From a virus (Duplodnaviria > Caudoviricetes), in IMG/VR virus record IMGVR_UViG_3300027899_000061, positions 1 to 26,335 of that record: 26,335 nt of DNA; one strand, written 5' to 3'. The notes beneath the pieces were generated by a model, which made no database searches, was not told the origin of the DNA, and saw nothing but the letters and a program-made list of their open reading frames with translations. Positions within the stretch are counted from its first letter, which is position 1. The number at the start of each line of letters is the position of its first letter. Made by a program: the position numbers and the translations under genes. Positions 31-21,653 of the stretch are shown piece after piece.

Positions 31-55
31 GTGTGTTCCTTGTTGCTATGTGTTT

Positions 56-84: not shown

Positions 85-340
85 ACCATTCATCTACCGT
101 GAGGACAGTGGGTTCATCGTAAACATCTTTACCGTTATCGTAATATGCATGATTTTGAGAAGACCATTTGTGCCCAGCAAACATGAAATTGCCGTAGTTG
201 GCGCCTGTTTTATATGAATCCTTTGCAGCCTTTTCAAATTCCACAGCAAATGCTTCTGCGGATTCATACTCTACTGGAACTGTGTTGCGGCATGAATACG
301 TATAACCATCACCCATCTGATATACAATGACTAATCGCAT
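65..340 (-). CDS. hypothetical phage protein, 91 aa
   Basis: ORF track; co-oriented with neighbours. Confidence 0.75.
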   Translation of the reverse strand: MRLVIVYQMGDGYTYSCRNTVPVEYESAEAFAVEFEKAAKDSYKTGANYGNFMFAGHKWSSQNHAYYDNGKDVYDEPTVLTVDEWFDRNSV

Positions 341-364
341 TTTGAATTCCCATTTGTAACTAAT

Positions 365-733
365 TTACAGACCCAACAGTTCACGTTCTTCTTCGGACAA
401 TTTTTTCAATGCTGCTTGCTTGACTTGATATTGACGTTCTGCCTCACGGGCTTCTTTTTCCTTCGACTCGACACGCCAAGTCAGATCGTTCAGCGACTCT
501 TCGGAATTGGTGCTGTAGAACAGATTAAGCATGTATTTGTAGGTGTGACGATCAACACGATCATACAAGGTAAACGTAAGATCGGAGTTAGCCCGTAGTT
601 CGTAGTTTGCATCCTGCGCCCGAGCCAGCATAGCCATCAAACGTTGCGGATAGGTTGCCTCTTGCTCTGCTTCAACCTGCTGCAACTCAACGGCGAAGCG
701 GGCCAGACGTTCTGCTTTAGTTTCTCTTGCCAT
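365..733 (-). CDS. hypothetical phage protein, 122 aa, C-terminal ALKKLSEEERELLGL helix
   Basis: AGGAG SD; directly downstream of promoter 767-795. Confidence 0.85.
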   Translation of the reverse strand: MARETKAERLARFAVELQQVEAEQEATYPQRLMAMLARAQDANYELRANSDLTFTLYDRVDRHTYKYMLNLFYSTNSEESLNDLTWRVESKEKEAREAERQYQVKQAALKKLSEEERELLGL

Positions 734-760
734 CTCAAACTCCTGTTTGTTGCTGTTTAA

Positions 761-795
761 GTATCTATTATAGCACTATGTGAATTAATTGTCAA
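761..795. repeat. 35-bp exact direct repeat containing a promoter (copy 2 at 1161-1195)
   Basis: gtatctattatagcactatgtgaattaattgtcaa present twice, 400 bp apart. Confidence 0.95.
767..795 (-). promoter_or_regulatory. sigma70-type early promoter
   Basis: perfect TTGACA-17nt-TATAAT. Confidence 0.9.
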
Positions 796-798
796 GCA

Positions 799-1140
799 TT
801 ACCAAATTGTGACTTCGACATCAAAGCCACGATCTTTTACTGAATCCATCCACCAGTCAAGCTCTGCAATGTGATCGCAACCTTCGTTCACAATCTTAAC
901 ACTGATTGGATCACCATCGCCAAAGATGTCGTCATCAGCGTATACATTCACTTGCTCATCTTTGGCTATGCTCAAGACCCAATCCTTGTATGCTTTAATG
1001 TAATCAGCAGATTTAACAATCTCATAAGACACGGTGGTGGGAGTCTGCCAAGCATTGAAATACTCAGTCTGAGACTCAATCTTGCCAGTACGGTTGACAG
1101 TTACTTCCCGCACAGCTTCAAAATGAATGTTCATGCTCAT
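799..1140 (-). CDS. hypothetical phage protein, 113 aa
   Basis: AAGGAG SD; bracketed by two identical promoters. Confidence 0.85.
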   Translation of the reverse strand: MSMNIHFEAVREVTVNRTGKIESQTEYFNAWQTPTTVSYEIVKSADYIKAYKDWVLSIAKDEQVNVYADDDIFGDGDPISVKIVNEGCDHIAELDWWMDSVKDRGFDVEVTIW

Positions 1141-1166
1141 GTTATGCTCCTTATTGCTATGTATCT

Positions 1167-1195
1167 ATTATAGCACTATGTGAATTAATTGTCAA
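1167..1195 (-). promoter_or_regulatory. sigma70-type early promoter
   Basis: perfect TTGACA-17nt-TATAAT; -35 overlaps the TGA stop of 1192..1482. Confidence 0.9.
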
Positions 1196-1482
1196 AAGAA
1201 GTCTTCAAACTCGTCAGCAGACATACAGAGATACTCCATTTCAGTGTATCCATTACGATCCACACCATCGCCTATACCAACATAATTGCCATCACAGTCA
1301 AAGGCAGAATATCCATATCGGTCATAACCTTCGTCATCATAGTCGTCAAACATGGTCTTTTCATCATATGCCACGCCGCTGTCGGAAATTTCTTTTGACC
1401 ACTCAGCAGGTACTTTGCCGTAACAGTTGTAGATAAACTCTTTGTCACGGGGAAGATTTGGAGAATATTTTCCTCGGCTCAT
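1192..1482 (-). CDS. acidic hypothetical protein with YDxxGYD-type repeats, 96 aa
   Basis: YDDEGYDRYGY / DCDGNY / DRNGY; AAGGAG SD. Confidence 0.85.
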   Translation of the reverse strand: MSRGKYSPNLPRDKEFIYNCYGKVPAEWSKEISDSGVAYDEKTMFDDYDDEGYDRYGYSAFDCDGNYVGIGDGVDRNGYTEMEYLCMSADEFEDFF

Positions 1483-1512
1483 GTTCGGCTCCTTGTTGCT
1501 GGTTAAGTATAT

Positions 1513-1541
1513 ATTATATACTCAAACTGAATTACGGTCAA
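1513..1541 (-). promoter_or_regulatory. sigma70-type early promoter
   Basis: TTGACC-17nt-TATAAT; identical to 56-84. Confidence 0.85.
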
Positions 1542-1543
1542 TC

Positions 1544-1768
1544 TTATTTGCGTTTTGCCTTGGAATTTTTAATTTCTTCTGCGCGACGGAATGCATTTAG
1601 ATCGTCACGAGTTAACCAACCGTCATGCCATTTTGGCCCAGGACCGCCGCCCACAAGCCATCGTGTAGGATGCTTGAGTAATTCAGGTTTCAGCTTGTCA
1701 ATTTTCCACATTGGGCGATTCGCAAGCCAATCAGCGTTTCGGGCATTTATTTCAGTGCTGTGTGTCAT
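1544..1768 (-). CDS. hypothetical protein, 74 aa
   Basis: strong AAGGAGGTG SD. Confidence 0.8.
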   Translation of the reverse strand: MTHSTEINARNADWLANRPMWKIDKLKPELLKHPTRWLVGGGPGPKWHDGWLTRDDLNAFRRAEEIKNSKAKRK

Positions 1769-1802
1769 TTCACCTCCTTGATGCCGTGGTCGGTCTCTGC
1801 TC

Positions 1803-2624
1803 TCATTTACTCTCCTTGGTCATATCATCCTGTTGGGGATCGTATGTGCCAATGTTGCCTGTTGCACTTTTGATTTGAGTTTGATAGAAGGGTCTGTAGG
1901 TAATGTGAGTGGGTCCACCATCATTGCCCATTTCTAAATCATCCGGATCGCCACCATATAATTTACCACCAACATCAAAGGCATCGTAGTGAAAAATACC
2001 ATCATAACCAAATGATTCCAACGCTGCTACAAATTCTGAACTGTCACCTATTGTAAACGTATCTATAGTACAATCCTCTAGTATATTTACAATACTACTG
2101 TCATCATCTCCTGCAAGTTCAGATATTTTTTCTGCTACTTCCACAAAGTCTTTCATTCGATAGAGACCATCACTTGCATCGATTTTATACCGTGCACCAG
2201 TGTTGTAAATTATGGTATCTAATTCTTGTAGAATTTCAATTATAGTACCAATATCGTATTTGGGGAATTTGCGAAATATTTCGTCTAGCGTAGCGTTTTC
2301 TCCTAGATCGCGTATGTCAAATGGTGTCTTTATAGCAAGATATACTGGGTGAACATTACTGCCAGCACCATACTCATGGGTAGCTAACTGTCTTGCGTAT
2401 ACACTGGCAACATGTGGATCAGCCGCAAAACTTGATGTTGCTCTCCCCCGTCTTAGACCAAAGCCAGTTGATTTAGGAACTCGTCTGGTACCACGAAACA
2501 CCATCAGTGGACTACCGCTTGAGTCAACAACCTTACTGCCACGAAACCATGCTAAGAATGCTGGATTATACTGTCGCTGTGCCGCTTCCACAATGTTGAT
2601 AAGTTTGCGTATATCGTTGGACAT
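1803..2624 (-). CDS. ADP-ribosyltransferase-fold protein resembling ART-PolyVal (273 aa from MSNDIRK)
   Basis: motifs FxAWFxGSKVVDxxGxPLxVxxGT, VxPVYLxIKxP, GYDGI and QIKSATGNxGTYDP, recognised from memory of the family; start chosen at M21 of the ORF-track protein. Confidence 0.7.
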   Translation of the reverse strand: MSNDIRKLINIVEAAQRQYNPAFLAWFRGSKVVDSSGSPLMVFRGTRRVPKSTGFGLRRGRATSSFAADPHVASVYARQLATHEYGAGSNVHPVYLAIKTPFDIRDLGENATLDEIFRKFPKYDIGTIIEILQELDTIIYNTGARYKIDASDGLYRMKDFVEVAEKISELAGDDDSSIVNILEDCTIDTFTIGDSSEFVAALESFGYDGIFHYDAFDVGGKLYGGDPDDLEMGNDGGPTHITYRPFYQTQIKSATGNIGTYDPQQDDMTKESK

Positions 2625-2628
2625 ACGG

Positions 2629-2636
2629 TATTTATG
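2629..2636 (-). promoter_or_regulatory. putative T4-like late promoter (CATAAATA)
   Basis: 1 mismatch to TATAAATA, 4 nt upstream of the ATG at 2624, no SD. Confidence 0.45.
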
Positions 2637-2719
2637 TTCAACTGGCAACGTATGCCTCAGCTGTTGGGGATGTTGGAAAAACACGCCAGCTGTGCCGCAA
2701 TAAGATCCGTTGGCTCTTG

Positions 2720-2773
2720 TTATTGAGCATATTCAGCAGATTTTTTGTAAAGTTCTTGAATTCGTTCGTTCAT
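2720..2773 (-). pseudogene. truncated MNER-family gene (MNERIQELYKKSAEYAQ*)
   Basis: intact N-terminal box with ATGA overlap, TAA after 17 codons, no central or C-terminal box downstream. Confidence 0.7.
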
Positions 2774-3006
2774 AGTCTACGCCAAATGTGTGTACAATCT
2801 GGACACTGCCATTGTTGCGTCCTATCTGTTTCCATATCGTAAATGCCAATCTGTCGGCCCCACTGCCCCCGCTCTCGTGTGGCACCATACATTGCCGCAA
2901 TACGATCAGCTTCAGCTTCACTGCCAGAATCTTTGTAAAAGTGTTCCCAAATGCTGCCACCATCAAGATCGGCATTGCAGTTAGGGCAATATCCATTTTC
3001 GTTCAT
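2770..3006 (-). CDS. zinc-ribbon-like protein, 78 aa
   Basis: CPNC...CPDC; starts ATGAACGAA at a junction box. Confidence 0.8.
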   Translation of the reverse strand: MNENGYCPNCNADLDGGSIWEHFYKDSGSEAEADRIAAMYGATRERGQWGRQIGIYDMETDRTQQWQCPDCTHIWRRL

Positions 3007-3194
3007 TCTTCAACTCCGATTTTATCTGAGGGAATCTGGTTATAGGGCATATTGTGTTTGCGGCTTTCTTCTATGATATGAGCCAAGTCATCTTCAAATT
3101 TTGTATATCCAGGATTAGATCGTAGTCGTTGCCAGAATGGACTATTAGTGTCATCACTGAACACTTCCTTGATACTGGTTTTATATGCCTTCAT
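3003..3194 (-). CDS. hypothetical protein ending in the GVEE junction box, 63 aa
   Basis: ATGA overlaps at both ends. Confidence 0.8.
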   Translation of the reverse strand: MKAYKTSIKEVFSDDTNSPFWQRLRSNPGYTKFEDDLAHIIEESRKHNMPYNQIPSDKIGVEE

Positions 3195-3472
3195 TTTTCA
3201 ACTCCGAAATGATCTAAAACTGTTTGCCCACAATCATTGATAACTGCTTCTTCAATCTGACTGCGATAATCTTTATAATAACACGGAACACTCAGCACTA
3301 CATTACTACACTTCTTGATAATCAACTCAGCGAACTTTTCTGGATCAAAGTTTTTGTAGACATTGATTTCTTGAAATGTATGAGTTCCATTTCCGTCAAT
3401 ATTTGTTGGTTTAGAGTCCAGTCTATATAACATACCAGCCTGTGTCATAAGTTCTTTAATTCGTTCGTTCAT
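3191..3472 (-). CDS. MNER-FAELI-HFGVE family paralog, 93 aa
   Basis: all three conserved boxes. Confidence 0.9.
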   Translation of the reverse strand: MNERIKELMTQAGMLYRLDSKPTNIDGNGTHTFQEINVYKNFDPEKFAELIIKKCSNVVLSVPCYYKDYRSQIEEAVINDCGQTVLDHFGVEK

Positions 3473-3636
3473 TCTTTAACTCCAGTCTGATTATTCAGCA
3501 CCCAAGTCAGTCTGTCAATAACGTCCTTCAAATCATCTTTGACAATAACTGCACCAACTTTAAGACGGCGTGCATAACTCATATCTGCTACACGTATTGC
3601 CCAATCCATGTATAATTGTGTAAATCTATCTTTCAT
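3469..3636 (-). CDS. 55-aa chimera: dCMP deaminase-like N-terminus fused to a GVKE junction tail
   Basis: manual translation MKDRFTQLYMDWAIRVADMSYARRLKVGAVIVKDDLKDVIDRLTWVLNNQTGVKE; lacks GYNG, HAE and PCxxC. Confidence 0.7.
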   Translation of the reverse strand: MKDRFTQLYMDWAIRVADMSYARRLKVGAVIVKDDLKDVIDRLTWVLNNQTGVKE

Positions 3637-3799
3637 TTTTTAGTTCTAGCAACATTTTTTTAAAATCTGCCATATATGCTAATTGGATATTATGTAGATA
3701 CATGTATAGCTTGGTATCGTTACTCCACTCTTCTATCGCATAGACTAATGCAGAATCAACATGCGGCTCTAATTTTAGTACGTATTCTTCTAATGTCAT
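3626..3799 (-). CDS. hypothetical protein, 57 aa (MTLEEYVLKL...LKNER)
   Basis: manual translation; ATGA overlap at junction box; fills the gap. Confidence 0.7.
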   Translation of the reverse strand: MTLEEYVLKLEPHVDSALVYAIEEWSNDTKLYMYLHNIQLAYMADFKKMLLELKNER

Positions 3800-4071
3800 T
3801 CTTTAACTCCAAAATGGTGATCAATCAATGCTCTCACATACCATGTACTCAGCCCAATATGTCCCCAGCCTGGTCCACGCTCGTGGGGAACATAAACCTT
3901 GTCGCACTTATCATGTTCAGCCTCTGCTAGAAGTTTTTTAAGTTCTTCAATGCCAAATCCCTTAAAGAAATTAAAAGATGATTGAGTTGAAAAATAATGG
4001 TATTCATGTTTAAAGTCAGTGGTTGGATAGCCCTTATCGTAGGGAATTTTTATGCCGTCAAATGCGCCCAT
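3796..4071 (-). CDS. hypothetical protein with HFGVKE tail, 91 aa
   Basis: unrelated body, C-terminal box present. Confidence 0.85.
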   Translation of the reverse strand: MGAFDGIKIPYDKGYPTTDFKHEYHYFSTQSSFNFFKGFGIEELKKLLAEAEHDKCDKVYVPHERGPGWGHIGLSTWYVRALIDHHFGVKE

Positions 4072-4277
4072 TATTCTTCAACTCCGAAATGTGTAAACAA
4101 TAATTCACAGTGGTGTGTTGCTCCATTATCTTCGTACATAACACTGACACATTCTTTGACAATCAACTCGGCGAACTTTTCGTATAGTTTGCTCTCAAAA
4201 TTCTTATACTCCATAATCATAAGGAGTTGCGTTTCTTCCACAGCCTGTTCAGCAAGTTTTCGAATTCGGTCGTTCAT
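4071..4277 (-). CDS. MNER-FAELI-HFGVE family paralog, 68 aa
   Basis: all three boxes. Confidence 0.9.
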   Translation of the reverse strand: MNDRIRKLAEQAVEETQLLMIMEYKNFESKLYEKFAELIVKECVSVMYEDNGATHHCELLFTHFGVEE

Positions 4278-4489
4278 TCTTCAACTCCGAAATGTTGTTT
4301 AACCACGCTACTAAAAGTTGACTCAAGTTCATAATTACGCAAAGTTACTTGAATACATTCTCTGACAATCAACTCGGCGAACTTTTCGATGGCTTCGTCG
4401 CCCACAAGAGCATGCCCCATATAGTCATCATAGATACCAGTATAATGTGGGTCAGCCTGTTCAGCAAGTTCTTTAATTCGTTCGTTCAT
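4274..4489 (-). CDS. MNER-FAELI-HFGVE family paralog, 71 aa
   Basis: all three boxes. Confidence 0.9.
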   Translation of the reverse strand: MNERIKELAEQADPHYTGIYDDYMGHALVGDEAIEKFAELIVRECIQVTLRNYELESTFSSVVKQHFGVEE

Positions 4490-4779
4490 TCTTCAACTCC
4501 GAAAAAATGTTCTCTAATCGCTACGTAACTATCAACACCACACTGAACATAACCATCCCAATGTGTGTCCTTCATCATTTCTTTATCTTCTAACACAGGC
4601 TTATACTGTTCTTCAACCTGACGCATACATTCTTTCACAATCAACTCGGCGAACTTTTCATTATAATCTTCAGCAAACACCTCGTGATAATCTTCCCAAT
4701 TTGGGTAACCTGCTTCTAGCCATTGTTGATTAGCGTATGCTTCAGCTTGACTGACGAGCTGTTTAATTCGTTCGTTCAT
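4486..4779 (-). CDS. MNER-FAELI-HFGVE family paralog, 97 aa
   Basis: all three boxes; start reset to MNER. Confidence 0.9.
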   Translation of the reverse strand: MNERIKQLVSQAEAYANQQWLEAGYPNWEDYHEVFAEDYNEKFAELIVKECMRQVEEQYKPVLEDKEMMKDTHWDGYVQCGVDSYVAIREHFFGVEE

Positions 4780-5107
4780 TAAATGCCTTTCTACAATCAA
4801 TCAATAAGTCTCGCACTTTTTGGTGCTCCATGAGTTCAGGATTAAACAAGCCACCTACTGACAAGTATTCCGTAATTCTATCTACAAGTTGTTTGGTTGG
4901 ATTCATTCTTGTCCTGATAGTGTCGGCAAGGTCTGCTGGATGCGTTGATTTGTCAGCCTCTGCACATATCTTTGCACATGCCTCGTTTTCTGCTGTTGCT
5001 ACAAGGTTGGCAAAACCCTCTAGACTACGCCAGTCATACTTATCCCAAGTGCCGTTCCAATCAAGGTCAACTGCTTTTGCCATGCGTACAATATCATTTT
5101 TGGTCAT
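4763..5107 (-). CDS. hypothetical two-part protein, 114 aa; N-terminal half resembles the array family architecture
   Basis: DIVRMAKA...EGFANLV...EACAKIC; ATGA overlap. Confidence 0.8.
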   Translation of the reverse strand: MTKNDIVRMAKAVDLDWNGTWDKYDWRSLEGFANLVATAENEACAKICAEADKSTHPADLADTIRTRMNPTKQLVDRITEYLSVGGLFNPELMEHQKVRDLLIDCRKAFNERTN

Positions 5108-5301
5108 CGCAACTCCGGTTCTTTTTCATAGCATGGTTTACACACTGCATCTGATCGTGGTCCCATACAGTGATAGATAACACCAGCACAATACTTACAC
5201 AAGATAAATGCGTGAGTCACTATACTGCCTTTTGCCGGCGCATACATGTGATAGTAACCTTCTTCACGCTCTGTGTAGCCAATGTGTTCACGTTCGTTCA
5301 T
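5104..5301 (-). CDS. small Cys-rich (zinc finger-like) protein with MNER start, 65 aa
   Basis: CKYC, HC, CKPC. Confidence 0.8.
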   Translation of the reverse strand: MNEREHIGYTEREEGYYHMYAPAKGSIVTHAFILCKYCAGVIYHCMGPRSDAVCKPCYEKEPELR

Positions 5302-5729
5302 TCGTTAAACTCCTTAAGTTCAAACACATAATGACCACCACGACGAGAGCTTACCCAATTCAGATGCCACATCATATCACACTTTTGCATTGAACTGATA
5401 ATGCTTTCATTGCCACTCCATCCAGCAGTTGAAATATCATACTGATAGACTTTCTCATCTTTGCGATACTCATGATCAGCCTCACCTTCCCCCCAGCCCC
5501 ATGATGGCATGTACCAAATGCTTTTGATAAAGTCGAACCAACCTTTGGCATCGCTCCAGTGCCAGGTTTCAACAATATCAAGTGCAGCATCAGTGGGATA
5601 CCCGTCCTCATCTATTAGGTCTTGCTCCATTAGTTTAGCAATGAGTGCCTTACTGTCTGCAATATCCTGCAACATCTTGGTATGAATTTCTTTAATATAC
5701 GCTTCGTGTTCTTCCTTAGTTCTTTTCAC
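5298..5729 (-). CDS. hypothetical phage protein, 143 aa (DEDGYPT...STAGWSGNE...RGGHY)
   Basis: GTG start overlapping the upstream TGA, with GGAG SD. Confidence 0.8.
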   Translation of the reverse strand: MKRTKEEHEAYIKEIHTKMLQDIADSKALIAKLMEQDLIDEDGYPTDAALDIVETWHWSDAKGWFDFIKSIWYMPSWGWGEGEADHEYRKDEKVYQYDISTAGWSGNESIISSMQKCDMMWHLNWVSSRRGGHYVFELKEFNE

Positions 5730-5914
5730 TGTGTCACTCCAAAGTGTTTCTTTGCTGCATTCCACCCATACTGAAATGCTTCCCATTCTAGTTCATCATA
5801 GCCACATGCACCCGATAGCGAAATATTGCGACCATCTGAGGTATCTTTGAGATATAGATCAAACATATCTGACTGTTCTTGGGTGTCCCAATCTTCTTTC
5901 ATTCGTTCGTTCAT
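5726..5914 (-). CDS. hypothetical protein with MNER start and HFGV tail but unrelated core, 62 aa
   Basis: start reset to M34 of the ORF-track protein. Confidence 0.8.
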   Translation of the reverse strand: MNERMKEDWDTQEQSDMFDLYLKDTSDGRNISLSGACGYDELEWEAFQYGWNAAKKHFGVTQ

Positions 5915-5915
5915 G

Positions 5916-6155
5916 TTATTTCCAGAATTTGTACCAAGGCTTCCTAATAGATACAGGTTTTCCCTCAAAGTAGAGTGCATCAGGACCACATTTTTCTTCA
6001 CGCATGCCGGCATACTGCAAGGGTTTACTCCGTGTCACGTGTGCAAATTTAGCATTAATGGAGCCATCAATTACAGAATACCCATTTTGGGGTGCATGGC
6101 ACCAATCTGCCCTGTACCCCTTCGAAAAATACTTACAGTCTTTACATAATTTCAT
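5916..6155 (-). CDS. small Cys-rich protein, 79 aa
   Basis: CKDC..C..C; C-terminal KPWYKFWK. Confidence 0.8.
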   Translation of the reverse strand: MKLCKDCKYFSKGYRADWCHAPQNGYSVIDGSINAKFAHVTRSKPLQYAGMREEKCGPDALYFEGKPVSIRKPWYKFWK

Positions 6156-6469
6156 TCTTTAGCTCCAAACTTTTCTTGCAGCCGTTTGAACTCAGCAGCA
6201 TCACGCTGTTCTTCAAACTTTGCGTAGTTTTCTTCACGAGCAATGCGCCGTGCCAGTTCTTCGTCAGTTTCTGGTTCATCTTTGCAAACATACAAAGTCT
6301 CTCGATCAGAGTCACTATACGGTTCACACTTGCCCATGATCTGTGCGTCATTGCCATACTTCTCGATCAGCATCTTGACTTTGTTCAATACATCTTCTAG
6401 CGTATTCCATTCAAAATGAATCGAAGTCTTTTCTTTAGAGACCATCTTGCGTTCGTAATTTACTTTCAT
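6152..6469 (-). CDS. hypothetical protein ending FGAKE, 105 aa
   Basis: degenerate junction box GGAGCTAAAGAATGA. Confidence 0.85.
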   Translation of the reverse strand: MKVNYERKMVSKEKTSIHFEWNTLEDVLNKVKMLIEKYGNDAQIMGKCEPYSDSDRETLYVCKDEPETDEELARRIAREENYAKFEEQRDAAEFKRLQEKFGAKE

Positions 6470-6631
6470 TTATTCCACATCCATTTCTTGGTAATTGCGA
6501 TACTCAGATTCGGTATCTTCAAATTCTTCTTTCCAAATCAATGCTTTGACTTCATTATCAAACACTTTCATCGCCGACTTGAATTCGTCACAATAGTTGA
6601 AATAGCACTGATATCCGATCCAGACTTTCAT
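6470..6631 (-). CDS. hypothetical protein, 53 aa (MKVWIGYQCY...EMDVE)
   Basis: manual translation; fills the gap exactly. Confidence 0.75.
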   Translation of the reverse strand: MKVWIGYQCYFNYCDEFKSAMKVFDNEVKALIWKEEFEDTESEYRNYQEMDVE

Positions 6632-6882
6632 TCTTCAACTCCGAAATGTGCTTTAACTCTAGTCATAGCAGCAATTTTAGCAGTTTTATATGCCCCAGAT
6701 GCAGAACAGTCTGTGTCAGGAATAGCCTCAGCAATTTGAGCAGTACATTCCCGAACAATCAACTCGGCAAACCTTTCTGCACTAAAGCACATTGTCTCAT
6801 AAGGCATGTTGTTAGATGGATCAATTGTGGTATCTGGCACATGAGCCTGTTTATAAAGTTCCAACATTCGTTCGTTCATCAC
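6628..6882 (-). CDS. MNER-FAELI-HFGVE family paralog, 84 aa
   Basis: all three boxes. Confidence 0.9.
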   Translation of the reverse strand: MMNERMLELYKQAHVPDTTIDPSNNMPYETMCFSAERFAELIVRECTAQIAEAIPDTDCSASGAYKTAKIAAMTRVKAHFGVEE

Positions 6883-7022
6883 ATGCTCTCCAATGCCTTC
6901 TTTAGTTCAATGAGTTCTTTAGCCAGTTTGTCATAGTCGCTCTTCCGAACAAACTTAATATACTTTGCAGTTCCTACACTGGTCATAGCAGGGACCCAAA
7001 ATGCCCAAGTTTTTGGTTTCAT
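6879..7022 (-). CDS. hypothetical protein, 47 aa (MKPKTWAFW...)
   Basis: ATGA overlaps at both ends. Confidence 0.75.
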   Translation of the reverse strand: MKPKTWAFWVPAMTSVGTAKYIKFVRKSDYDKLAKELIELKKALESM

Positions 7023-7327
7023 TCCGCAACTCCGAAATGTTCTTTGATCTGATTTGCCGCCCAACGAACACCTTTGTCCCATTCGTCATTGCTACCATTA
7101 TCGGCACACTGGTCAATACATTCCTGAACAATCAACTCGGCGAACTTTTGATCTAAGAGTTTTCTATATTCTTCTATGTCAATACCATTATCAATGCTAT
7201 CAACATAGTCTGCGGCTTGTTGTTTAAGTTCTTTAATTCGTTCGTTCATTTTAAGCTCCCAAGAAATGGGAATCACGCAACCTTGGTATTGAACAGTTTG
7301 CGAAATTCCGTCTATATTGTGTATCAT
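7019..7327 (-). CDS. MNER-FAELI-HFGVE family paralog with 26-aa leader
   Basis: all three boxes; alternative start MNER at 7249. Confidence 0.9.
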   Translation of the reverse strand: MIHNIDGISQTVQYQGCVIPISWELKMNERIKELKQQAADYVDSIDNGIDIEEYRKLLDQKFAELIVQECIDQCADNGSNDEWDKGVRWAANQIKEHFGVAE

Positions 7328-7341
7328 TCTTCAACTCCGAA
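7245..7341. repeat. 97-bp exact direct repeat (copy 2 at 10209-10305)
   Basis: base-by-base identity, offset 2964. Confidence 0.95.
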
Positions 7342-7536
7342 CCGTTCTAGTATATGCATATCAATAGCATAGGTTGGCATCATTTTTATTTCACAATATT
7401 CTTCGTGTTCAACAGCAATTTTAGCACACTCCCGAATAATCAACTCGGCAAATTTTTCCATAACTAAATCAGTCCCGTATGCTAGTCTGTCTGGATATCC
7501 AGCCTGACGACCAAGTTCTTTAATTCGTTCGTTCAT
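7324..7536 (-). CDS. MNER-FAELI-HFGVE family paralog, 70 aa
   Basis: all three boxes. Confidence 0.9.
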   Translation of the reverse strand: MNERIKELGRQAGYPDRLAYGTDLVMEKFAELIIRECAKIAVEHEEYCEIKMMPTYAIDMHILERFGVEE

Positions 7537-7775
7537 TATTCGTCTTCCAACAGATTTAATTTTTCTGCCATTTCAACGCACATACGTCTAATTCCCAACA
7601 CTCGGTCACGGTGACTTAGAATTTCTTCCGTCTCGTTCAGAATGTCTTCGGCAATACGCCAAGCACCCTGTGTAAAATCAATCTCGCCACGACCAGCCTT
7701 GACCCCAATACAAACCGCCTGAGCCAGTAAGTCTTTTAACGAAATCTTGCCGTCAATCATACGATCTTCAATCAT
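7536..7775 (-). CDS. hypothetical protein, 79 aa
   Basis: coupled to neighbours by ATGA/TAATG overlaps. Confidence 0.8.
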   Translation of the reverse strand: MIEDRMIDGKISLKDLLAQAVCIGVKAGRGEIDFTQGAWRIAEDILNETEEILSHRDRVLGIRRMCVEMAEKLNLLEDE

Positions 7776-7975
7776 TCTTCAACTCCATATTCTGCTTTCA
7801 AATCATCCATAGCTTTACGCATACGTTCTTTCACTGGAAGATATTGCACAGGATGAATAGGAATATAGGACCACCCCATACCACCCCATATTTTACTACC
7901 TTCTAGCAATTTGTCAATGTCAGCAAGTAGTTGGAATCTAGGATCAGCCCAGAGTTTCTTAACATGTTCGTTCAT
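7772..7975 (-). CDS. hypothetical protein with MNEH start and YGVEE tail, unrelated core, 67 aa
   Basis: terminal boxes only. Confidence 0.8.
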   Translation of the reverse strand: MNEHVKKLWADPRFQLLADIDKLLEGSKIWGGMGWSYIPIHPVQYLPVKERMRKAMDDLKAEYGVEE

Positions 7976-7986
7976 TATTGATATCC

Positions 7987-8169
7987 TTAAAATACAGAAA
8001 CTGGTGGGATCTTTGAGCTACCACAGCCACAGTTTCTCTTGAGAATATGTTGATACTTTTCTGGGTTATCTTTCATATCCTGAAGACGCTGATAGAATCG
8101 TTCTTCAATCTCTTGATCGATGCAAGAAGTATTGAAGAAGTTGCGAATCTTTTCTAATAGTGTTTTCAT
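7987..8169 (-). CDS. hypothetical protein, 60 aa
   Basis: starts at junction box. Confidence 0.75.
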   Translation of the reverse strand: MKTLLEKIRNFFNTSCIDQEIEERFYQRLQDMKDNPEKYQHILKRNCGCGSSKIPPVSVF

Positions 8170-8357
8170 TCTTCAACTCCGAAATGTTCTAAAATTCCAC
8201 CAGGTCCATCATATGCCAAAGAGGCACACTCTCTGACAATCAACTCGGCGAACTTTTCCAAGGTATCTGTGGACATATGAGATACCGTAAGTTTGAATAA
8301 GTCTGGGGATCGCATACCCGCCTGTTTGGCAAGTTTAAGAATTTGTTTGTTCATCAT
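8166..8357 (-). CDS. MNER-FAELI-HFGVE family paralog, 63 aa
   Basis: central and C-terminal boxes intact, N box diverged; first gene after promoter. Confidence 0.9.
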   Translation of the reverse strand: MMNKQILKLAKQAGMRSPDLFKLTVSHMSTDTLEKFAELIVRECASLAYDGPGGILEHFGVEE

Positions 8358-8385
8358 CTACTCCAGTTTTGTTGCGAATGTAAAT

Positions 8386-8414
8386 ATTATAGCATCCACT
8401 GGATTATCAGTCAA
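8386..8414 (-). promoter_or_regulatory. sigma70-type early promoter heading the 2720-8357 sub-array
   Basis: TTGACT-17nt-TATAAT, then GCAACAA...GGAG. Confidence 0.85.
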
Positions 8415-8462
8415 CCGAAAAATTATGAACTAGTACGCGGATTATTCTGCTGAATTGAATAC

Positions 8463-8615
8463 TCAGCCACTGTTATTATCATCAATTGATGTTTGGTCTG
8501 GCAGATTTTCTTCAACAATTACACCGCCCAAACAAGACTGATAGCATTCAGCAACTGCTCTGACGTAAAATTTTATCATAGCACCATTGGTAGTGGTAAG
8601 TTTATAGACGGTCAT
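8463..8615 (-). CDS. hypothetical protein, 50 aa (MTVYKLTTTNG...)
   Basis: manual translation; ATGA overlap. Confidence 0.65.
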   Translation of the reverse strand: MTVYKLTTTNGAMIKFYVRAVAECYQSCLGGVIVEENLPDQTSIDDNNSG

Positions 8616-8800
8616 GCCGCAAATACCTGATATTCTTCATAGGTAAGGAACAGATCAGTCTGGGGATTTATATATTCACCTTGGCTGGGAGAGTAATATA
8701 AGACCCGATTGCCATCATAAAAAAACGGACCTTCTAGACCTTCACGTGCCTCATAACAAGCACGAAATTCCTGAGATACGTTGATAATTTTGTAACCCAT
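8612..8800 (-). CDS. hypothetical phage protein, 62 aa (GLEGPF...VLYY.P..GEY)
   Basis: downstream of promoter 8839-8867. Confidence 0.8.
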   Translation of the reverse strand: MGYKIINVSQEFRACYEAREGLEGPFFYDGNRVLYYSPSQGEYINPQTDLFLTYEEYQVFAA

Positions 8801-8838
8801 TTTCTGTCCACCTACGAAGATATTTATTGTGAATTTAG

Positions 8839-8867
8839 ATTATACGATTCATCTGAATGAACGTCAA
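8839..8867 (-). promoter_or_regulatory. sigma70-type early promoter
   Basis: TTGACG-17nt-TATAAT. Confidence 0.8.
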
Positions 8868-8873
8868 GCATGT

Positions 8874-9134
8874 TTAGCATGCATTCACATGATCATTGAT
8901 CACACCTTCTTGTGAGATAGACCTAATACGAACTCGCGCGTTAACTGCATGTTCAGCTTCTTCAAAAGTTTCAAAATCTTTGGTTACAGAAAACTGTCCG
9001 TCACATACGTACCGACTAATATACTCCCAGGTGTGACCATACCATCGCTTTACCCGAAAACGAACCTGATACATGACCTTGTTGTTACCGTCCACTTCTT
9101 TGATAATCTGATATCGCATGTTAATATTCCTCAA
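8874..9134 (-). CDS. hypothetical protein, up to 86 aa
   Basis: ORF track; start could be 9119. Confidence 0.75.
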   Translation of the reverse strand: MRNINMRYQIIKEVDGNNKVMYQVRFRVKRWYGHTWEYISRYVCDGQFSVTKDFETFEEAEHAVNARVRIRSISQEGVINDHVNAC

Positions 9135-9495
9135 ACATCTTCTTTTCTAGTTCATGCAACTTGACTCGTGCAGCTTCAATGTTCCTATCGTACAAGTCAC
9201 GCTCGATCATCCGAAAGTCTTGCCTGAATTCACCGAAGATTGCTTCGATCACTTGTCGCTTTGTGCGCTCGATTGCATGCGACAGTGCATTGTCTGACTT
9301 CATCTTGTCTAATTCAGAAACAAAACATTCAGAGCCTATGGTAACTCCAATTCTGTATTGTGTCTCTAGTTGAGCGGGATCAGTTCGGATATCCTCACGG
9401 ACACTGAACACATCTTGCAGTAGTGGACTCAATACGTTAATCATACGTACTCTGTCCATCTTTGTTGCTGTGATTGCTTTTACTACTTGACTCAT
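9121..9495 (-). CDS. hypothetical protein, 124 aa
   Basis: ATGA overlap. Confidence 0.85.
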   Translation of the reverse strand: MSQVVKAITATKMDRVRMINVLSPLLQDVFSVREDIRTDPAQLETQYRIGVTIGSECFVSELDKMKSDNALSHAIERTKRQVIEAIFGEFRQDFRMIERDLYDRNIEAARVKLHELEKKMFEEY

Positions 9496-9674
9496 TTTGA
9501 TGCGTAATCCATTAGATAATTGTAAACTTTTTCTGGCTCTGTCTTCCAGACTTCTTCAGGCGTCTGCATGTCAAACGCTTTGTTTTGACCTGACCACCAT
9601 CGCGGGGCTGCATCTTTACCAATCATCGCAATTAGTAGAGCATGACATCTTCCGAGCATAAGTTGCTCATTCAT
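9492..9674 (-). CDS. 60-aa protein resembling the Xre/MbcA/ParS antitoxin C-terminal domain
   Basis: AxxWWxxxNxAFxxxTPxE pattern; recognition only. Confidence 0.5.
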   Translation of the reverse strand: MNEQLMLGRCHALLIAMIGKDAAPRWWSGQNKAFDMQTPEEVWKTEPEKVYNYLMDYASK

Positions 9675-9828
9675 TAGATTTCTCCATCAAAGTTTGCAGT
9701 GCTTTTGCTGCTTCTTCTAGCAAGTCTGCGATTCGATCTGGCTTGCCTTCCTGTACACTCTTGCGGCTTTGAATCTGTCTGCGAATCTCAGCCCGCTTGA
9801 GGAGTCGATAGATTAGATCCTCTCCCAT
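9667..9828 (-). CDS. hypothetical phage protein, 53 aa (MGEDLIYRLLKRAEIRRQI...DRIADLLEEAA)
   Basis: manual translation; fills the gap. Confidence 0.75.
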   Translation of the reverse strand: MGEDLIYRLLKRAEIRRQIQSRKSVQEGKPDRIADLLEEAAKALQTLMEKSNE

Positions 9829-10028
9829 CACCATTCTTTAGTTCCTCGAACAGGAATTCTAACTATAGCGTCACGCCCATTCATTTCACTCTCGAACTGA
9901 ATGTCGATAGTATACCCAATGCCACTTGAATTATCCTTAATCAAATCAAATGCAGATATTTTATTTTCAAGAACAATCTCTCGAATGGCTGCCAAGTCCA
10001 ATGTGCTTAGTCGCATAATAGTATTCAT
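9828..10028 (-). CDS. hypothetical protein, 66 aa
   Basis: starts at junction box. Confidence 0.8.
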   Translation of the reverse strand: MNTIMRLSTLDLAAIREIVLENKISAFDLIKDNSSGIGYTIDIQFESEMNGRDAIVRIPVRGTKEW

Positions 10029-10144
10029 TCTTTTACTCCAAAATGTTGTTCAATCTGATAAGCAATGTGATTACCTTCATCTGAATCACCGTACTCGTCT
10101 ACAATAGCAATACATTGCTGAACAATCAACTGGGCGAACTTTTC
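10025..10144. repeat. ~120-bp imperfect direct repeat (copy 2 at 10795-10914)
   Basis: ungapped match, offset 770, about 11 mismatches by eye. Confidence 0.9.
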
Positions 10145-10291
10145 CAAGTCAATATTGTATTCTGAATAACGATGGTAGCATTGTTCAGCAAGTTGTTTAA
10201 TTCGTTCATTCATTTTAAGCTCCCAAGAAATGGGAATCACGCAACCTTGGTATTGAACAGTTTGCGAAATTCCGTCTATATTGTGTATCAT
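10025..10291 (-). CDS. mosaic MNER-FAELI-HFGVE paralog with 26-aa leader
   Basis: leader identical to 7019..7327; C-terminal half nearly identical to 10795..10989. Confidence 0.9.
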   Translation of the reverse strand: MIHNIDGISQTVQYQGCVIPISWELKMNERIKQLAEQCYHRYSEYNIDLEKFAQLIVQQCIAIVDEYGDSDEGNHIAYQIEQHFGVKE

Positions 10292-10473
10292 TCTTCAACT
10301 CCGAAATGTTTCTTCAACACATCACCGATAATGTCAACACCATAATCATCTACGTGTACGTCTATACACTCCCGAACAATCAACTCGGCGAACCGTTCTA
10401 GATATTTGTTATGGGCAGCAACATACTGTGTTATCTCAGACTGTTCTGCAAGTTCTTTAAGTCGTTCGTTCAT
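10288..10473 (-). CDS. MNER-FAELI-HFGVE family paralog, 61 aa
   Basis: all three boxes. Confidence 0.9.
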   Translation of the reverse strand: MNERLKELAEQSEITQYVAAHNKYLERFAELIVRECIDVHVDDYGVDIIGDVLKKHFGVEE

Positions 10474-10706
10474 TCTTTAACTCCGAAATATGTTTTAACT
10501 TTTTCACATAATCTCTGGACACGTTCTGCTGCTTGTTTGTCTTTGTTACCAACACAATCTAAATATTCTAGTATCAAAATGTCATCAAATTTCTTAACAA
10601 GCAACTCGGCGAAATCTAGATAATTGTCAGGAAATTTATAACCTCTACCCATGTCTTCGGCTAGTCCAGACTTGACAGCAAGGTCATTGATAATTCGTTC
10701 GTTCAT
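10470..10706 (-). CDS. MNER-FAELI-HFGVE family paralog (diverged), 78 aa
   Basis: MNERI / DFAELLV / YFGVKE. Confidence 0.85.
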   Translation of the reverse strand: MNERIINDLAVKSGLAEDMGRGYKFPDNYLDFAELLVKKFDDILILEYLDCVGNKDKQAAERVQRLCEKVKTYFGVKE

Positions 10707-10798
10707 AGTCCTTGTGCCTTTCTGTTAGGACATGCTTCGCATGGTTGATATAACTGTGTCATTGCACATTCAGCACAACTCATCCAAAAAGTTCTCAT
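10703..10798 (-). CDS. 31-aa CxxC...CxxC microprotein
   Basis: MRTFWMSCAECAMTQLYQPCEACPNRKAQGL; ATGA overlaps at both ends. Confidence 0.7.
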   Translation of the reverse strand: MRTFWMSCAECAMTQLYQPCEACPNRKAQGL

Positions 10799-10989
10799 TC
10801 TTCAACTCCGAAGTGTTGTTCAATTTGATAAGCAATGTGATTACCTTCATCTGAATCACCATACTTGTCTACAATAGCAATGCATTGCTGAACAATCAAC
10901 TCGGAAAACTTTTCAATCCTAGTATCAAATTTTGAGTGATGACTGTCCCAGCCAGCCTGTTCAGCAAGTAGTTTAATTCGTTCGTTCAT
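10795..10989 (-). CDS. MNER-FAELI-HFGVE family paralog, 64 aa
   Basis: all three boxes. Confidence 0.9.
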   Translation of the reverse strand: MNERIKLLAEQAGWDSHHSKFDTRIEKFSELIVQQCIAIVDKYGDSDEGNHIAYQIEQHFGVEE

Positions 10990-10992
10990 TCT

Positions 10993-11148
10993 TCAACTCC
11001 AAGCCAATCTAAACTTACCAAAAATAATTTCATAAATTTTCATACCATCAATTGTAGTAGTGCCAAGCCTGAATAAATGATTTACTTGCTCACCTTTGTG
11101 ACTTTTAGTAAACCACAATCCACTTTTTGAATATTCAAATTTTGTCAT
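10993..11148 (-). CDS. hypothetical protein, 51 aa, ending in the junction box read in a shifted frame
   Basis: MTKFEYSK...RLAWS*; TGG AGT TGA AGA ATG. Confidence 0.75.
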   Translation of the reverse strand: MTKFEYSKSGLWFTKSHKGEQVNHLFRLGTTTIDGMKIYEIIFGKFRLAWS

Positions 11149-11393
11149 TATTCAACTCCGAAATGTTCTTTGATCGCTAAAGCAATATTAGTACCGAATA
11201 GACAGTTTCCTGGTTTATTCATACGACCAGCATGGGCACTTTCATCAAACGCAATGCGTACACATTCTTTAACAATCAACTCGGCGAACTTTTCTTGGAA
11301 GTCGCTAGGTACATGAGTACTAATCCGCCATCCGCCATTTTCAGATGAGAATATCATAGCCTGTTTAGCAAGTTCTAGAATTCGTTCGTTCAT
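11148..11393 (-). CDS. MNER-FAELI-HFGVE family paralog, 81 aa
   Basis: all three boxes. Confidence 0.9.
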   Translation of the reverse strand: MNERILELAKQAMIFSSENGGWRISTHVPSDFQEKFAELIVKECVRIAFDESAHAGRMNKPGNCLFGTNIALAIKEHFGVE

Positions 11394-11869
11394 TCTTCAC
11401 CCACCTGTTCTTCGTAAACTTGAGTTGGAGCGTAGGGAAACGTCACGGGAACTCGAGAACCACGACTAGTGAAGTATGTTTTGTAAGGTTTACCGTCATC
11501 GATATCGGGCGAAGAATACCACTCCCAAAAGATTTTGCCTTCACTATCATATGCACCGGCATCATCTTTGAATACACGACCCAATCGTTTGTTTTGATAG
11601 AGTGTGCCGTTGTTACTGCCGGACACCTCTTTTGCAATCTCCATCCACTCAGAGTCTTCGCCAGTCAGAAAAGTCAGTGGTTCATACTTCAACAACTTTG
11701 ACAGCAAGTTGACAGCATAGTTTGCACTGAATCCACTATGTCCTTCTTTAGAGAATTCATGGATCATATGCAAAATGTGTTTACGCATTGCACCATTCAT
11801 CTCATCACCGTCGTCAACTAGACCTATGATGTCTAATTCAGACTCTGCGAATTTCATCATATTACTCAT
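11390..11869 (-). CDS. hypothetical phage protein, 159 aa (GHSGFSA...PLT.LTGED.EW...YQNKR)
   Basis: AAGGA SD before MSNMM; ends VGEE/ATGA. Confidence 0.85.
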   Translation of the reverse strand: MSNMMKFAESELDIIGLVDDGDEMNGAMRKHILHMIHEFSKEGHSGFSANYAVNLLSKLLKYEPLTFLTGEDSEWMEIAKEVSGSNNGTLYQNKRLGRVFKDDAGAYDSEGKIFWEWYSSPDIDDGKPYKTYFTSRGSRVPVTFPYAPTQVYEEQVGEE

Positions 11870-12104
11870 TGTATTTTCCTTTTTCAATTTCATCAGATGT
11901 ACTTTCAGTTGCCCAGTGTACTACAACCCAATCATCAATGCAATCTTTTTCCGACCAAGTCTTATCATATTCTTCTTGACCGTATTTCTCAATCATCTTT
12001 CCGCGCCAATGTGGGTAATACTGTTTGATAATGTCGTTGTCCGAAAGTGTTTCGTACACGACTTCTCCTTTGTCGCCGGGATAACAAATAGTCCAATACT
12101 GCAT
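11862..12104 (-). CDS. hypothetical protein, 80 aa
   Basis: GAGGA SD; overlaps the next gene. Confidence 0.8.
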   Translation of the reverse strand: MQYWTICYPGDKGEVVYETLSDNDIIKQYYPHWRGKMIEKYGQEEYDKTWSEKDCIDDWVVVHWATESTSDEIEKGKYNE

Positions 12105-12107
12105 GAA

Positions 12108-12265
12108 TTATTCCTCGGTCCAGGGATTTGCCTGATTAGGATTATGAACTTCAGTATTATTGTTGATAGCATCTGAATCACTTTGATCAATGACATAAGA
12201 CAGCAACATGGCCAGAATGATAATCATCAAAAAAATCCAACAGCAAGTGCAACTAGAATTAGCAT
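12108..12265 (-). pseudogene. small membrane protein gene apparently frameshifted in a T7 run
   Basis: MLILVALAVGFF* continues as LMIIILAMLLSYV...PWTEE* if one T is added at 12229-12235. Confidence 0.5.
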
Positions 12266-12299
12266 AAAATGCCCCGTGTTAATTATAAACTATCAATTT

Positions 12300-12503
12300 T
12301 CATCGTGTGATCCCAAAATGTTCAACAACCACATCGTACATACAACGGAATTCGCTGTCATTATTTTCAGCTTGATTAGCCACTCTGGCACATTCTTTGA
12401 TCAGATACTCAGAATATATTTTGATAAAAAGATCCTGATCGTAGTTTCCTAGGTCAGGGTGTGCTACTGCCTGCTGAGCCAGCATTTTAATTACGTTATT
12501 CAT
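12300..12503 (-). CDS. degenerate MNER-family paralog, 67 aa
   Basis: MNNVIKMLAQQA / YSEYLIKEC / EHFGI; DNA boxes eroded. Confidence 0.8.
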   Translation of the reverse strand: MNNVIKMLAQQAVAHPDLGNYDQDLFIKIYSEYLIKECARVANQAENNDSEFRCMYDVVVEHFGITR

Positions 12504-12823
12504 GATGTCACTGTGGTTTGATGCGTTGTAGTAAATACAGATTTTCCGCAGTCTCTGATGGACTTGACCAGTACTTGTGGATCAGTCTGGCTTATTTCCA
12601 ATAATTCAGACAAGCATAGTTCAGAATCAAATAACCAGATTTCGGGACATCTTTGTTGATTGTATATGGCTCTGAGAATGAGTTTATTTCCGGGAAATTT
12701 ATTCTCAGATTCACGGCCCTGCAGAGTACTCCAAGTAATATCCTTTTCAAACTCAGTGCAATCATAGATAGTCTCAAATCCCAGAGAATCAAAGTATGCC
12801 AGGTATGTGTGTGGTATACTCAT
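12500..12823 (-). CDS. hypothetical protein, 107 aa
   Basis: ATGA overlap. Confidence 0.8.
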   Translation of the reverse strand: MSIPHTYLAYFDSLGFETIYDCTEFEKDITWSTLQGRESENKFPGNKLILRAIYNQQRCPEIWLFDSELCLSELLEISQTDPQVLVKSIRDCGKSVFTTTHQTTVTS

Positions 12824-12829
12824 GGTATT

Positions 12830-13393
12830 TTAACTGCCGTTATCCTGCTCTCTACGTTTGCGTCGTGCTTCTGCAAGAATGAATACTTTTTCGTTGTCAT
12901 TGACCCAGTCATCTGGAATAGGCACACCATTGATTGCATGATTTTCTTCACTGTCGTAGGCCCAACCAAGGCCGCGCAGCATCTTGTGTTTGACCAGCAG
13001 ATTGGGTACACGGAAATCTTCCAAATCCTGGAATCCTATCATGACCCCAATCTCACACACTGCACCACTGCGACAGACGCCAGCATGGCAGTGTACTATC
13101 ACATTCATGTCCTGGGCCAGTGCATGTTGCAACAGCTTGACTAATTTAGTAGCCTGATCCTGCGTGATGGCAACTTCACTGACGTCAACGAACTCCCCAC
13201 TGCCAAAGTTGGTTATACCATCTTCTTCAATATCAAGAAAATCAAACTGATGTATTTCCTTGAAATGGGCATATTGTGGGGTTGGGTGGTCTCCGGGCGG
13301 ATCGGAAATCTGAATTAGCATGGAGTTTGCCCCGGGGTCTCGATGCGAGCCACGAGAGACTTCACTCCGTGATAAATTTTGAATCCAGGGCAT
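12830..13393 (-). CDS. protein tyrosine/dual-specificity phosphatase-like protein
   Basis: CX5R loop VHCHAGVCRSG; upstream FxDI acid loop. Confidence 0.85.
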   Translation of the reverse strand: MPWIQNLSRSEVSRGSHRDPGANSMLIQISDPPGDHPTPQYAHFKEIHQFDFLDIEEDGITNFGSGEFVDVSEVAITQDQATKLVKLLQHALAQDMNVIVHCHAGVCRSGAVCEIGVMIGFQDLEDFRVPNLLVKHKMLRGLGWAYDSEENHAINGVPIPDDWVNDNEKVFILAEARRKRREQDNGS

Positions 13394-13416
13394 GCATGGT
13401 CTCCGTTATTTTTAAA

Positions 13417-16394: not shown

Positions 16395-16970
16395 TTAACC
16401 TTTATAAAAAATGTGACGACCAATTTGGACAATTTTTTCCTTGCGCCAGCCCGGATTAACATAGTCGGCGTGATAGTAGATGGCGTTGCTCAGGCTGGGT
16501 AATCTAAAATGTTCCAGCAAAACTTTTTTCGCAACTTCTTCACTTTCAGCATAGAGCTTGGGGTGTATGGGACGAATTTTGACAGCAGCGTCACAGACCC
16601 AGCTAAACTGGCAGATCACTTTTTCATAGAACACATTCTTTTGATATACCACACCACAGACACCGTTGCCAAACATGCCAGCCTCGACTCGGTTCAGAGT
16701 TACCTGTGCCACTGCAACCTTGCCCTCAAAGGGCTCCGAAGCGGCTTCCCAGTAGATGTTGCGTGACAGACACTCTAACTGCCGTGTACGTTCAGCGGCG
16801 GTGGCTATGACTGGCCCACGCGCAGTGTTTTCCAACTGCAACCGTTGCAGTTTATCTTTGGTGACATTAGTTATCAAAAATGCCGCCAGGACCGCGCAGG
16901 TCAGTATCATTACACTTTGAATTGATCTAATCAGCGCTCGATAATATCGATTGGACATAGATTGTATCAT
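16395..16970 (-). CDS. SleB/CwlJ-like (Hydrolase_2) cell wall hydrolase with N-terminal membrane anchor
   Basis: CLSRNIYWEAASE...AVAQVTLNRV...QFSW...YYHADYVNP.W...IGRHIFY. Confidence 0.9.
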   Translation of the reverse strand: MIQSMSNRYYRALIRSIQSVMILTCAVLAAFLITNVTKDKLQRLQLENTARGPVIATAAERTRQLECLSRNIYWEAASEPFEGKVAVAQVTLNRVEAGMFGNGVCGVVYQKNVFYEKVICQFSWVCDAAVKIRPIHPKLYAESEEVAKKVLLEHFRLPSLSNAIYYHADYVNPGWRKEKIVQIGRHIFYKG

Positions 16971-20607: not shown

Positions 20608-21042
20608 TTATTCACACCAACTTTTTTTTGCATCTCCGTAATATTCACGGGCGAATCCATTGGATATCAGCGCAGCTCTAAGGCTCTGCCCGTTTAATAA
20701 TAAATCGCCCAGTACGCGACCACCAAATTTATCCCAATCATACAGTACAACTTGATGAGTCTGTGTAGTGGCTACTGCATTTTTAGTAAATGCCGACGCC
20801 GCCTGACCACGTTGTTCCTCCATGGGGCACTTGGCACGAAATCCTTTTTCAGGAGTATCAACTCCGAAAATCCGAACAGCCAATTCTGGCTTTAATGGTC
20901 TGGGAAGAAATGGTGCTGCAATTACTATAGTATCCCCATCATTGACTCTGACAATTCGTGCATCATAGGTCACACCCTGAGGTGTTTTCTGTGCCAGCGC
21001 CAGGGCCGGGATCATGGCCAATAATATCAATAGTTTTTTCAT
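20608..21042 (-). CDS. SNase-like thermonuclease with signal peptide
   Basis: RVNDGDT, VRIFGVDTPE, DKFGGRVLG, LISNGFA; start MKKLLILL. Confidence 0.9.
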   Translation of the reverse strand: MKKLLILLAMIPALALAQKTPQGVTYDARIVRVNDGDTIVIAAPFLPRPLKPELAVRIFGVDTPEKGFRAKCPMEEQRGQAASAFTKNAVATTQTHQVVLYDWDKFGGRVLGDLLLNGQSLRAALISNGFAREYYGDAKKSWCE

Positions 21043-21644: not shown

Positions 21645-21653
21645 AATTCCTGT

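Follow-up and report, generated by a model that had tools for sequence, protein, structure and literature searches.

Gene 10025..10291, on the minus strand of the 26,335-nt virus record that was analysed as a whole (hereafter the window), belongs to an uncultured aquatic phage and is a real patchwork: in relatives, each of its three parts (leader, front half, back half) is joined to different partners. In the family of small genes to which it belongs, the halves pair freely, breakpoints lie in conserved boxes, the reading frame is kept, and syntenic relatives carry different halves in place. The first 13 kb of this 26-kb record form a chain of small minus-strand genes, many of them overlapping by ATGA, and 14 window genes follow the order N box (MNERIKELAEQ), variable segment V1, M box (EKFAELIVxEC), variable segment V2 and C box (HFGVEE-stop). 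In gene 10025 the order is leader, N box, V1A, M box, V2 and C box, with the following parts:

10025..10291, minus strand: mosaic gene, 88 aa from the first ATG and 62 aa from the internal N-box ATG
10214..10291, minus strand: 26-codon leader with its own GGAG 6 nt ahead of the N-box ATG
10181..10213, minus strand: N box MNERIKQLAEQ, predicted helix 1
10145..10180, minus strand: V1A segment; the copies in loci L001 and L086 are 97% identical, with a different V2 in each
10112..10144, minus strand: M box EKFAQLIVQQC, the central crossover box, where predicted helix 2 starts
10046..10111, minus strand: V2 segment, common to gene 10795 with 3 differences in 66 nt; predicted helix-loop-helix
10025..10045, minus strand: C box HFGVKE-stop, with a GGAG and with the ATGA in which the stop codon overlaps the start of the following gene
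10209..10305, minus strand: copy 2 of a 97-bp exact repeat (upstream C-box end, leader and N-box start)
7245..7341, minus strand: copy 1 of the 97-bp exact repeat

Within the 97 bp, the 78-nt leader is preceded by 14 nt from the C box of the upstream gene and followed by 5 nt from the N box; this direct repeat extends to 116 bp if 2 mismatches are allowed. Triplet shuffling of the window (20 shuffles) gave no exact repeat longer than 16 bp. The identical leader of genes 10025 and 7019 claimed in the original prediction is confirmed. The position of the GGAG in the leader makes two starts possible for gene 10025. The V2 segment had been described as shared with gene 10795 apart from about four mostly silent mismatches; comparison of window 10044-10131 with the copy 770 nt away gave 4 mismatches (10055, 10091, 10096 and 10112), 3 of them silent and one an E/K replacement. 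The V1 segments of the two genes are 45% identical in DNA, a match that ranks 8th of 62 V1 segments of similar length by DNA score and 39th of 188 by protein score; with shuffle p values of 0.07 (codons) and 0.20 (residues) the similarity is not significant, in line with the original prediction. The other family genes of the window are:

10795..10989, minus strand: paralog that joins V1C (10915-10956) to the shared V2 (10816-10881); L067 has V1C at 98% identity together with a different V2
10470..10706, minus strand: paralog missing from L086, the indel bounded by N boxes
10288..10473, minus strand: paralog upstream of gene 10025; V1 and V2 unchanged in L086, where the leader also comes next
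7019..7327, minus strand: paralog with the leader and V1B, the leader's usual partner; V2 differs in the syntenic locus L084
7324..7536, minus strand: paralog with a different V1 in place in L084, both flanks kept
8166..8357, minus strand: paralog with a different V2 in place in L084, both flanks kept; its V2 is joined to another V1 in L086
11148..11393, minus strand: paralog coupled to an upstream Tad3-like gene
6628..6879, minus strand: paralog
4071..4779, minus strand: three tandem paralogs (4071-4277, 4274-4489 and 4486-4779)
3191..3472, minus strand: paralog
12300..12503, minus strand: divergent paralog with degenerate boxes

Exchange of halves was analysed in 82 loci and the window, in which 328 ORFs matched the family, 215 had three parsable boxes and 191 of these were non-identical; 113 of the 328 hits lacked at least one parsable box and were left out of the pair count together with 24 identical copies from near-duplicate contigs, and loci L083 and L085 were excluded as the window's own contig. 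At a sharing threshold of 75% DNA identity, 29 of the 18,145 pairs of non-identical genes share V1, 34 share V2 and 1 shares both. The back half is unrelated in 28/29 V1-sharing pairs and the front half in 33/34 V2-sharing pairs, and five pairs have one half fully identical and the other unrelated. Mean per-codon identity of the V1-sharing pairs drops from about 0.87 to about 0.3 directly past the M box, while that of the V2-sharing pairs rises at this box, and the switch happens within one or two codons. The upstream flank is common to none of 28 V1-sharing pairs and the downstream flank to none of 32 scorable V2-sharing pairs. Between the window and the syntenic locus L084, three family genes have one unlike half each, and the sequence is nearly identical up to the boxes. 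These half-sharing pairs, the loci L084 and L086 and the identity drop at the M box support the modular exchange with breakpoints in conserved boxes that had been proposed for gene 10025. In a DNA-level scan the stretch from N to M was in frame and stop-free in 193/193 cases and that from M to C in 188/194. Both halves are under purifying selection at a dN/dS of about 0.1 (0.12 for V1 in 19 pairs, 0.09 for V2 in 23 pairs). Five proteins (P0043, P0060, P0151, P0168 and P0171) have their M, N or C box in duplicate, which is what unequal crossover is expected to produce. Sharing of a half is commoner within a locus (5/303 pairs) than between loci (56/17,842), and Chao1 estimates are about 970 front halves and about 680 back halves.

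Partners of the three parts of gene 10025 were counted in a query-enriched set of 343 non-identical proteins, which contains 12 proteins with V1A, spread over 12 V2 families, 16 with V1B (gene 7019's front half), spread over 15 V2 families, and 5 with the V2 of 10025, spread over 5 V1 families. The same V2 thus occurs with other V1 segments in related phages, which the original prediction had suggested looking for, and both its E and K alleles are found elsewhere. The leader is joined to V1B in 17 of 18 leader-bearing protein clusters and to V1A in the remaining one (P0001), so that its transfer from a V1B gene to V1A is likely; V1B is also found without the leader (P0115). In L086 the leader and V1A already lie beside the orthologue of gene 10288, followed by another V2, and in run X2 V1A and V2 are joined at the same site without a leader match. 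Since both junctions of gene 10025 appear separately in relatives, one crossover in the shared N-V1A-M stretch could build the gene. In the shortest history, an array of the L086 type (10288-leader-V1A) would have crossed over within N-V1A-M with one of the X2/X3 type (V1A-V2-9828 gene), the leader having come earlier from a V1B gene. Judged from the sequences, the copies in the window probably reflect a shared pool, and direct copying from 7019 and 10795 would not be needed.

Whole-gene duplication of 10795 followed by fast V1 change is a highly improbable origin of gene 10025. The N boxes of the two genes agree at 30/33 nt, which 11% of 190 other genes reach, and the V1 codon shuffle gives p 0.07; the N-box agreement may be taken as suggestive only. 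However, a significant alignment of the two V1 segments, which would fit such a duplication, was sought and not found, V1A and V1C both occur at 97-98% identity in other phages, joined there to different V2 segments, and V1 is under purifying selection. Slimmer still are the chances of an assembly chimera across the 97-bp and 35-bp repeats, which had been named as a possible refutation. No single contig spans the whole stretch, and the pieces listed for run X1 leave 10856-10972 uncovered, but L086 and L084, two other assemblies, each hold one path through the repeat: L086 matches window 10097-10473 at 96.8% over 377 bp (gene 10288, leader and V1A) and then continues into another V2, whereas L084 matches window 7118-8755 along the other path (7324 V2, leader and V1B). 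The junctions were checked on assembled contigs from runs X1, X2 and X3 and other loci, and joints of the contig table were left out of use because their short sides lie in boxes. Run X1, which may be the source sample, contains one contig covering 10056-10238 with zero differences. Contigs of two separate studies span V2-M-V1A at the site of gene 10025, where the one from X2 (9758-10214) continues for 94 letters that do not match the leader and the one from X3 (8236-10211) for only 7 letters, and protein cluster P0002 combines V1A and V2 with three other residues. An assembly chimera is thus refuted for gene 10025. Outside support is weaker for the V1C-V2 junction of gene 10795, whose V2 is in place in L086 (98.6%), where it follows another N-terminus.

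Amplification between the two 97-bp repeats was considered, as the X1 contig depth looked higher between them, and was rejected: the longest inner contig has a depth of 13.3, other long contigs range from 10.8 to 13.5, and depth is no copy number here. Run X1 also holds, at window 7468-7511, a second variant with the differences of X2 and X3, so related strains co-occur in one sample.

The halves are probably swapped through the phage's general recombination at population-wide boxes of 20-33 nt, as read from the products of the exchange. Crossovers from box to box, within a genome or between co-infecting phages, would lead to deletions, circles or duplications, and re-insertions. The products would be in frame, as the codon position of every box is fixed, and coupled, as the ribosome site and ATGA overlap for the following gene lie in the C box. 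A RecA/UvsX-like gene and gp23 were found in 3/3 near-complete carrier genomes, and tyrosine and serine recombinases (PF00589, PF00239) and reverse transcriptase in 0/3; this census covered three genomes other than that of the window, itself a 26-kb fragment, with four Pfam models. T4-type recombination is reported to need less than 50 bp of homology, with mini-circles arising between repeats (PMC2839356). Among 37 genes of five genomes, boxes from one genome resemble each other no more closely than boxes from different genomes (permutation p 0.24, 0.08 and 0.26), which makes them a population-wide standard, and genome-specific homogenisation was not detected in this set. Exact runs between random box pairs have a median of 10-13 nt and reach at least 20 nt in 4-23% of pairs, which is low for RecA-type exchange. 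Only one independent hybrid has both parents in one locus, and it is of the circle or duplication type. Patch conversion and successive single crossovers through circles both fit the data and are not separated by them.

A dedicated system, in which an unrecognised phage nickase or recombinase would start the exchanges by cutting a box motif with GAGTTGA as the core of M and C, seems unlikely to us. This heptamer is found in the M and C boxes in different reading frames (143/191 each), which general homology does not predict, and the gene strand of window 1-13400 contains it 24 times, compared to one copy in the remainder and one on the opposite strand; the population-wide box DNA and the short exact runs would also suit such a system. 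Yet no tyrosine or serine recombinase or reverse transcriptase was found in the three genomes or among 76 neighbouring proteins, the heptamer is present in 0/191 N boxes although the N box is a breakpoint, the GGAG of the C box is explained as a ribosome site, and the heptamer count is not independent of the boxes. Just as doubtful is the wider proposal that an undescribed phage factor recognises the boxes and initiates exchange at a common GAGTTGA core, and that large aquatic T4-like phages maintain a population-wide combinatorial library of several hundred fronts and several hundred backs on a single small helical scaffold, each combination being a candidate host-protein binder. We give even less credit to crossovers occurring anywhere with survival of box-bounded products only, chimeras within V segments being non-homologous or misfolded and the constancy of box DNA a by-product of protein constraint and translation signals. 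The boxes do coincide with predicted core helices, and V segments too unlike to recombine would give sharp breakpoints from homology alone. Protein constraint, however, does not explain why the N and M boxes hardly vary at silent sites and use codons that are rare in V segments; the M-box codons TTC GCC GAG TTG have frequencies of 0.80-0.95 compared to 0.18-0.30 in V segments. This explanation differs from general recombination at the boxes only in the reason for their constancy.

Compared to known systems, the 10025 family works like gp38 and PeSL shuffling and resembles DoMo, but it fails the defining tests of each. The gp38 adhesins of T-even phages also have hypervariable segments between conserved in-frame motifs, with exchanges often in or near these motifs and a pool common to T4-type phages (PMC3157838). 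There, a single virion gene encodes gp38, the motifs are rich in glycine and the receptor role is known, whereas the 10025 family has 12-18 copies of 60-100 aa that are predicted helical and also exchanged between paralogs. Its variable segments are likewise exchanged at conserved in-frame motifs; neither gp38 homology nor glycine-rich motifs emerged, with no Pfam, PHROG, NCBIfam or PDB match and with boxes predicted helical. In PeSL of RB49 and phi1, short repeats mediate insertion, deletion and replacement of small ORFs in hyperplastic regions; they include a Shine-Dalgarno site and start codon, and no dedicated recombinase is reported for them (PMC2839356, PMC4122927). Similarly, the C-box GGAG..ATGA lies ahead of many family genes, gene 10470 is missing from L086 between N boxes, and the three carrier genomes have gp23. 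A PeSL is an intergenic promoter plus stem-loop that moves whole genes, while the boxes of the 10025 family are coding, intragenic and move half-genes. Sigma70 sites with 11-12 of 12 matches are not tied to the N, M and C boxes as a class, the leader shows only 9/12 sites, on the opposite strand, and the 10 terminator-like sites compare with 11.0 in shuffles. In the DoMo of hsdS (type I restriction-modification), variable domains flanked by conserved repeats swap between alleles and loci, one- or three-domain units also arise, and the same repeats flank both domains, so that a domain can change position (PMC3077401). The N, M and C boxes differ from each other, and V1-V2 comparisons reached 50% identity in 0 of 117,649 cases.

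Diversity-generating retroelements and shufflons diversify part of a protein on a constant scaffold. Unlike them, the 10025 family comes with no reverse transcriptase or site-specific recombinase in the three carrier genomes. Its boxes are all direct repeats (822/822 hits on the gene strand), in contrast to the inverted or att sites of a shufflon or integron, and whole segments are replaced instead of being mutated at adenines as in retroelements.

The product of gene 10025 is predicted to be a small three-helix protein. The AlphaFold2 model (pLDDT 85) has helices at residues 3-10, 23-41 and 47-57, with helix 1 formed by the N box, helix 2 running from the M box into V2, helix 3 from the end of V2 into the C box, and V1 as a loop. 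The hydrophobic pattern of V2 is helical at both ends, suggesting variants of one hairpin rather than captured foreign DNA. For the leader, a beta-hairpin at residues 11-20 was predicted with moderate confidence; its 4 DNA copies differ by one change, which is non-silent. A structured leader RNA was rejected, as Rfam gave no match and the fold had z = -0.57. Near-consensus sigma70 promoters on the gene strand (e.g. 8867, 8414 and 13795) suggest early expression, and the family is likely a variable early host-interaction factor, a putative role in which, most speculatively, V1 and V2 might be host-target binding surfaces. Upstream of paralog 11148, and ATGA-coupled to it, a minus-strand gene (11390-11893) matches the Pfam family Tad3 (Thoeris inhibitor) with E 8e-36, and its end resembles a C box. 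In other loci, 1 of 76 neighbouring proteins matches a recognised anti-defence family (Lar-like, L095). These neighbours provide a weak context for host interaction.

A profile search gave 9,246 clusters at 50% identity, and about 2,700 IMG/VR stretches are estimated to have the M pattern; three near-complete T4-like genomes (340-374 kb) contain 12, 18 and 14 matches. No family or fold match was found in PHROGs, Pfam, NCBIfam, PADLOC, PDB sequences or Foldseek PDB, nor any family match in cultured phages. BFVD best matches are mostly uncharacterised proteins of uncultured phages, none at E <=0.001, and the ESM Atlas gave unnamed viral clusters only. IMG/VR pattern searches for V2 and for the leader found nothing, and that for V1A returned no contigs other than those of L001 and L002. 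The 18 loci obtained from GTDB lie in MAGs from unrelated taxa and probably are mis-binned phage contigs, so that no host is claimed; a 183-kb contig with two family matches in a Haliscomenobacter MAG (L108, L112) may be a phage contig and a possible host lead. The half-gene shuffling family is apparently undescribed, with no account in the openly readable literature; subscription papers or supplements could hold one. Swapping of halves would yield thousands of mini-proteins of putative function, and the 9,246 clusters are explained by recombining a finite set of selected halves and not by point mutation alone. The family offers a clean natural test, below the gene scale, of the modular theory of phage evolution; its breakpoints between close relatives are resolved to the codon. 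Whole-protein clustering overcounts families with swapped halves. If the halves bind host proteins, they make up a natural library of binders, from which anti-defence candidates could be drawn.

Further features were observed in the window and the loci. Exact intergenic repeats of 30 bp (55-84/1512-1541) and 35 bp (761-795/1161-1195) are consensus sigma70 promoters on the gene strand and candidate PeSL-like early promoter cassettes. Non-family genes 3003-3194, 3796-4071, 6152-6469, 7772-7975 and 5726-5914 have a C-like end or an N-like start without an M box, and the boxes may hook in unrelated genes too. The minus-strand ORF 3469-3636 (55 aa) is likely a chimera formed outside the boxes: its last ~70 nt match the end of a different gene in L086, and its start, without a Pfam hit, looks like what we take to be a dCMP-deaminase fragment. 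An unlisted minus-strand ORF of 31 aa with two CxxC motifs (10703-10798) lies between paralogs 10795 and 10470, is coupled at both ends and is conserved in L086. The window also encodes an ART-PolyVal ADP-ribosyltransferase domain (1803-2684, minus strand; E 1e-9) and dual-specificity phosphatase-like, cell wall hydrolase and SNase-like genes (12830-13393, 16395-16970 and 20608-26326). Its NrdA is closest to Xanthomonas phages BUDD and X1 (62%), and the adjoining genes, recognised by eye, are presumably NrdB, glutaredoxin and Fe-S assembly-like. An ATP-dependent DNA ligase adjoins family genes in three scanned loci (L087, L090 and L037).
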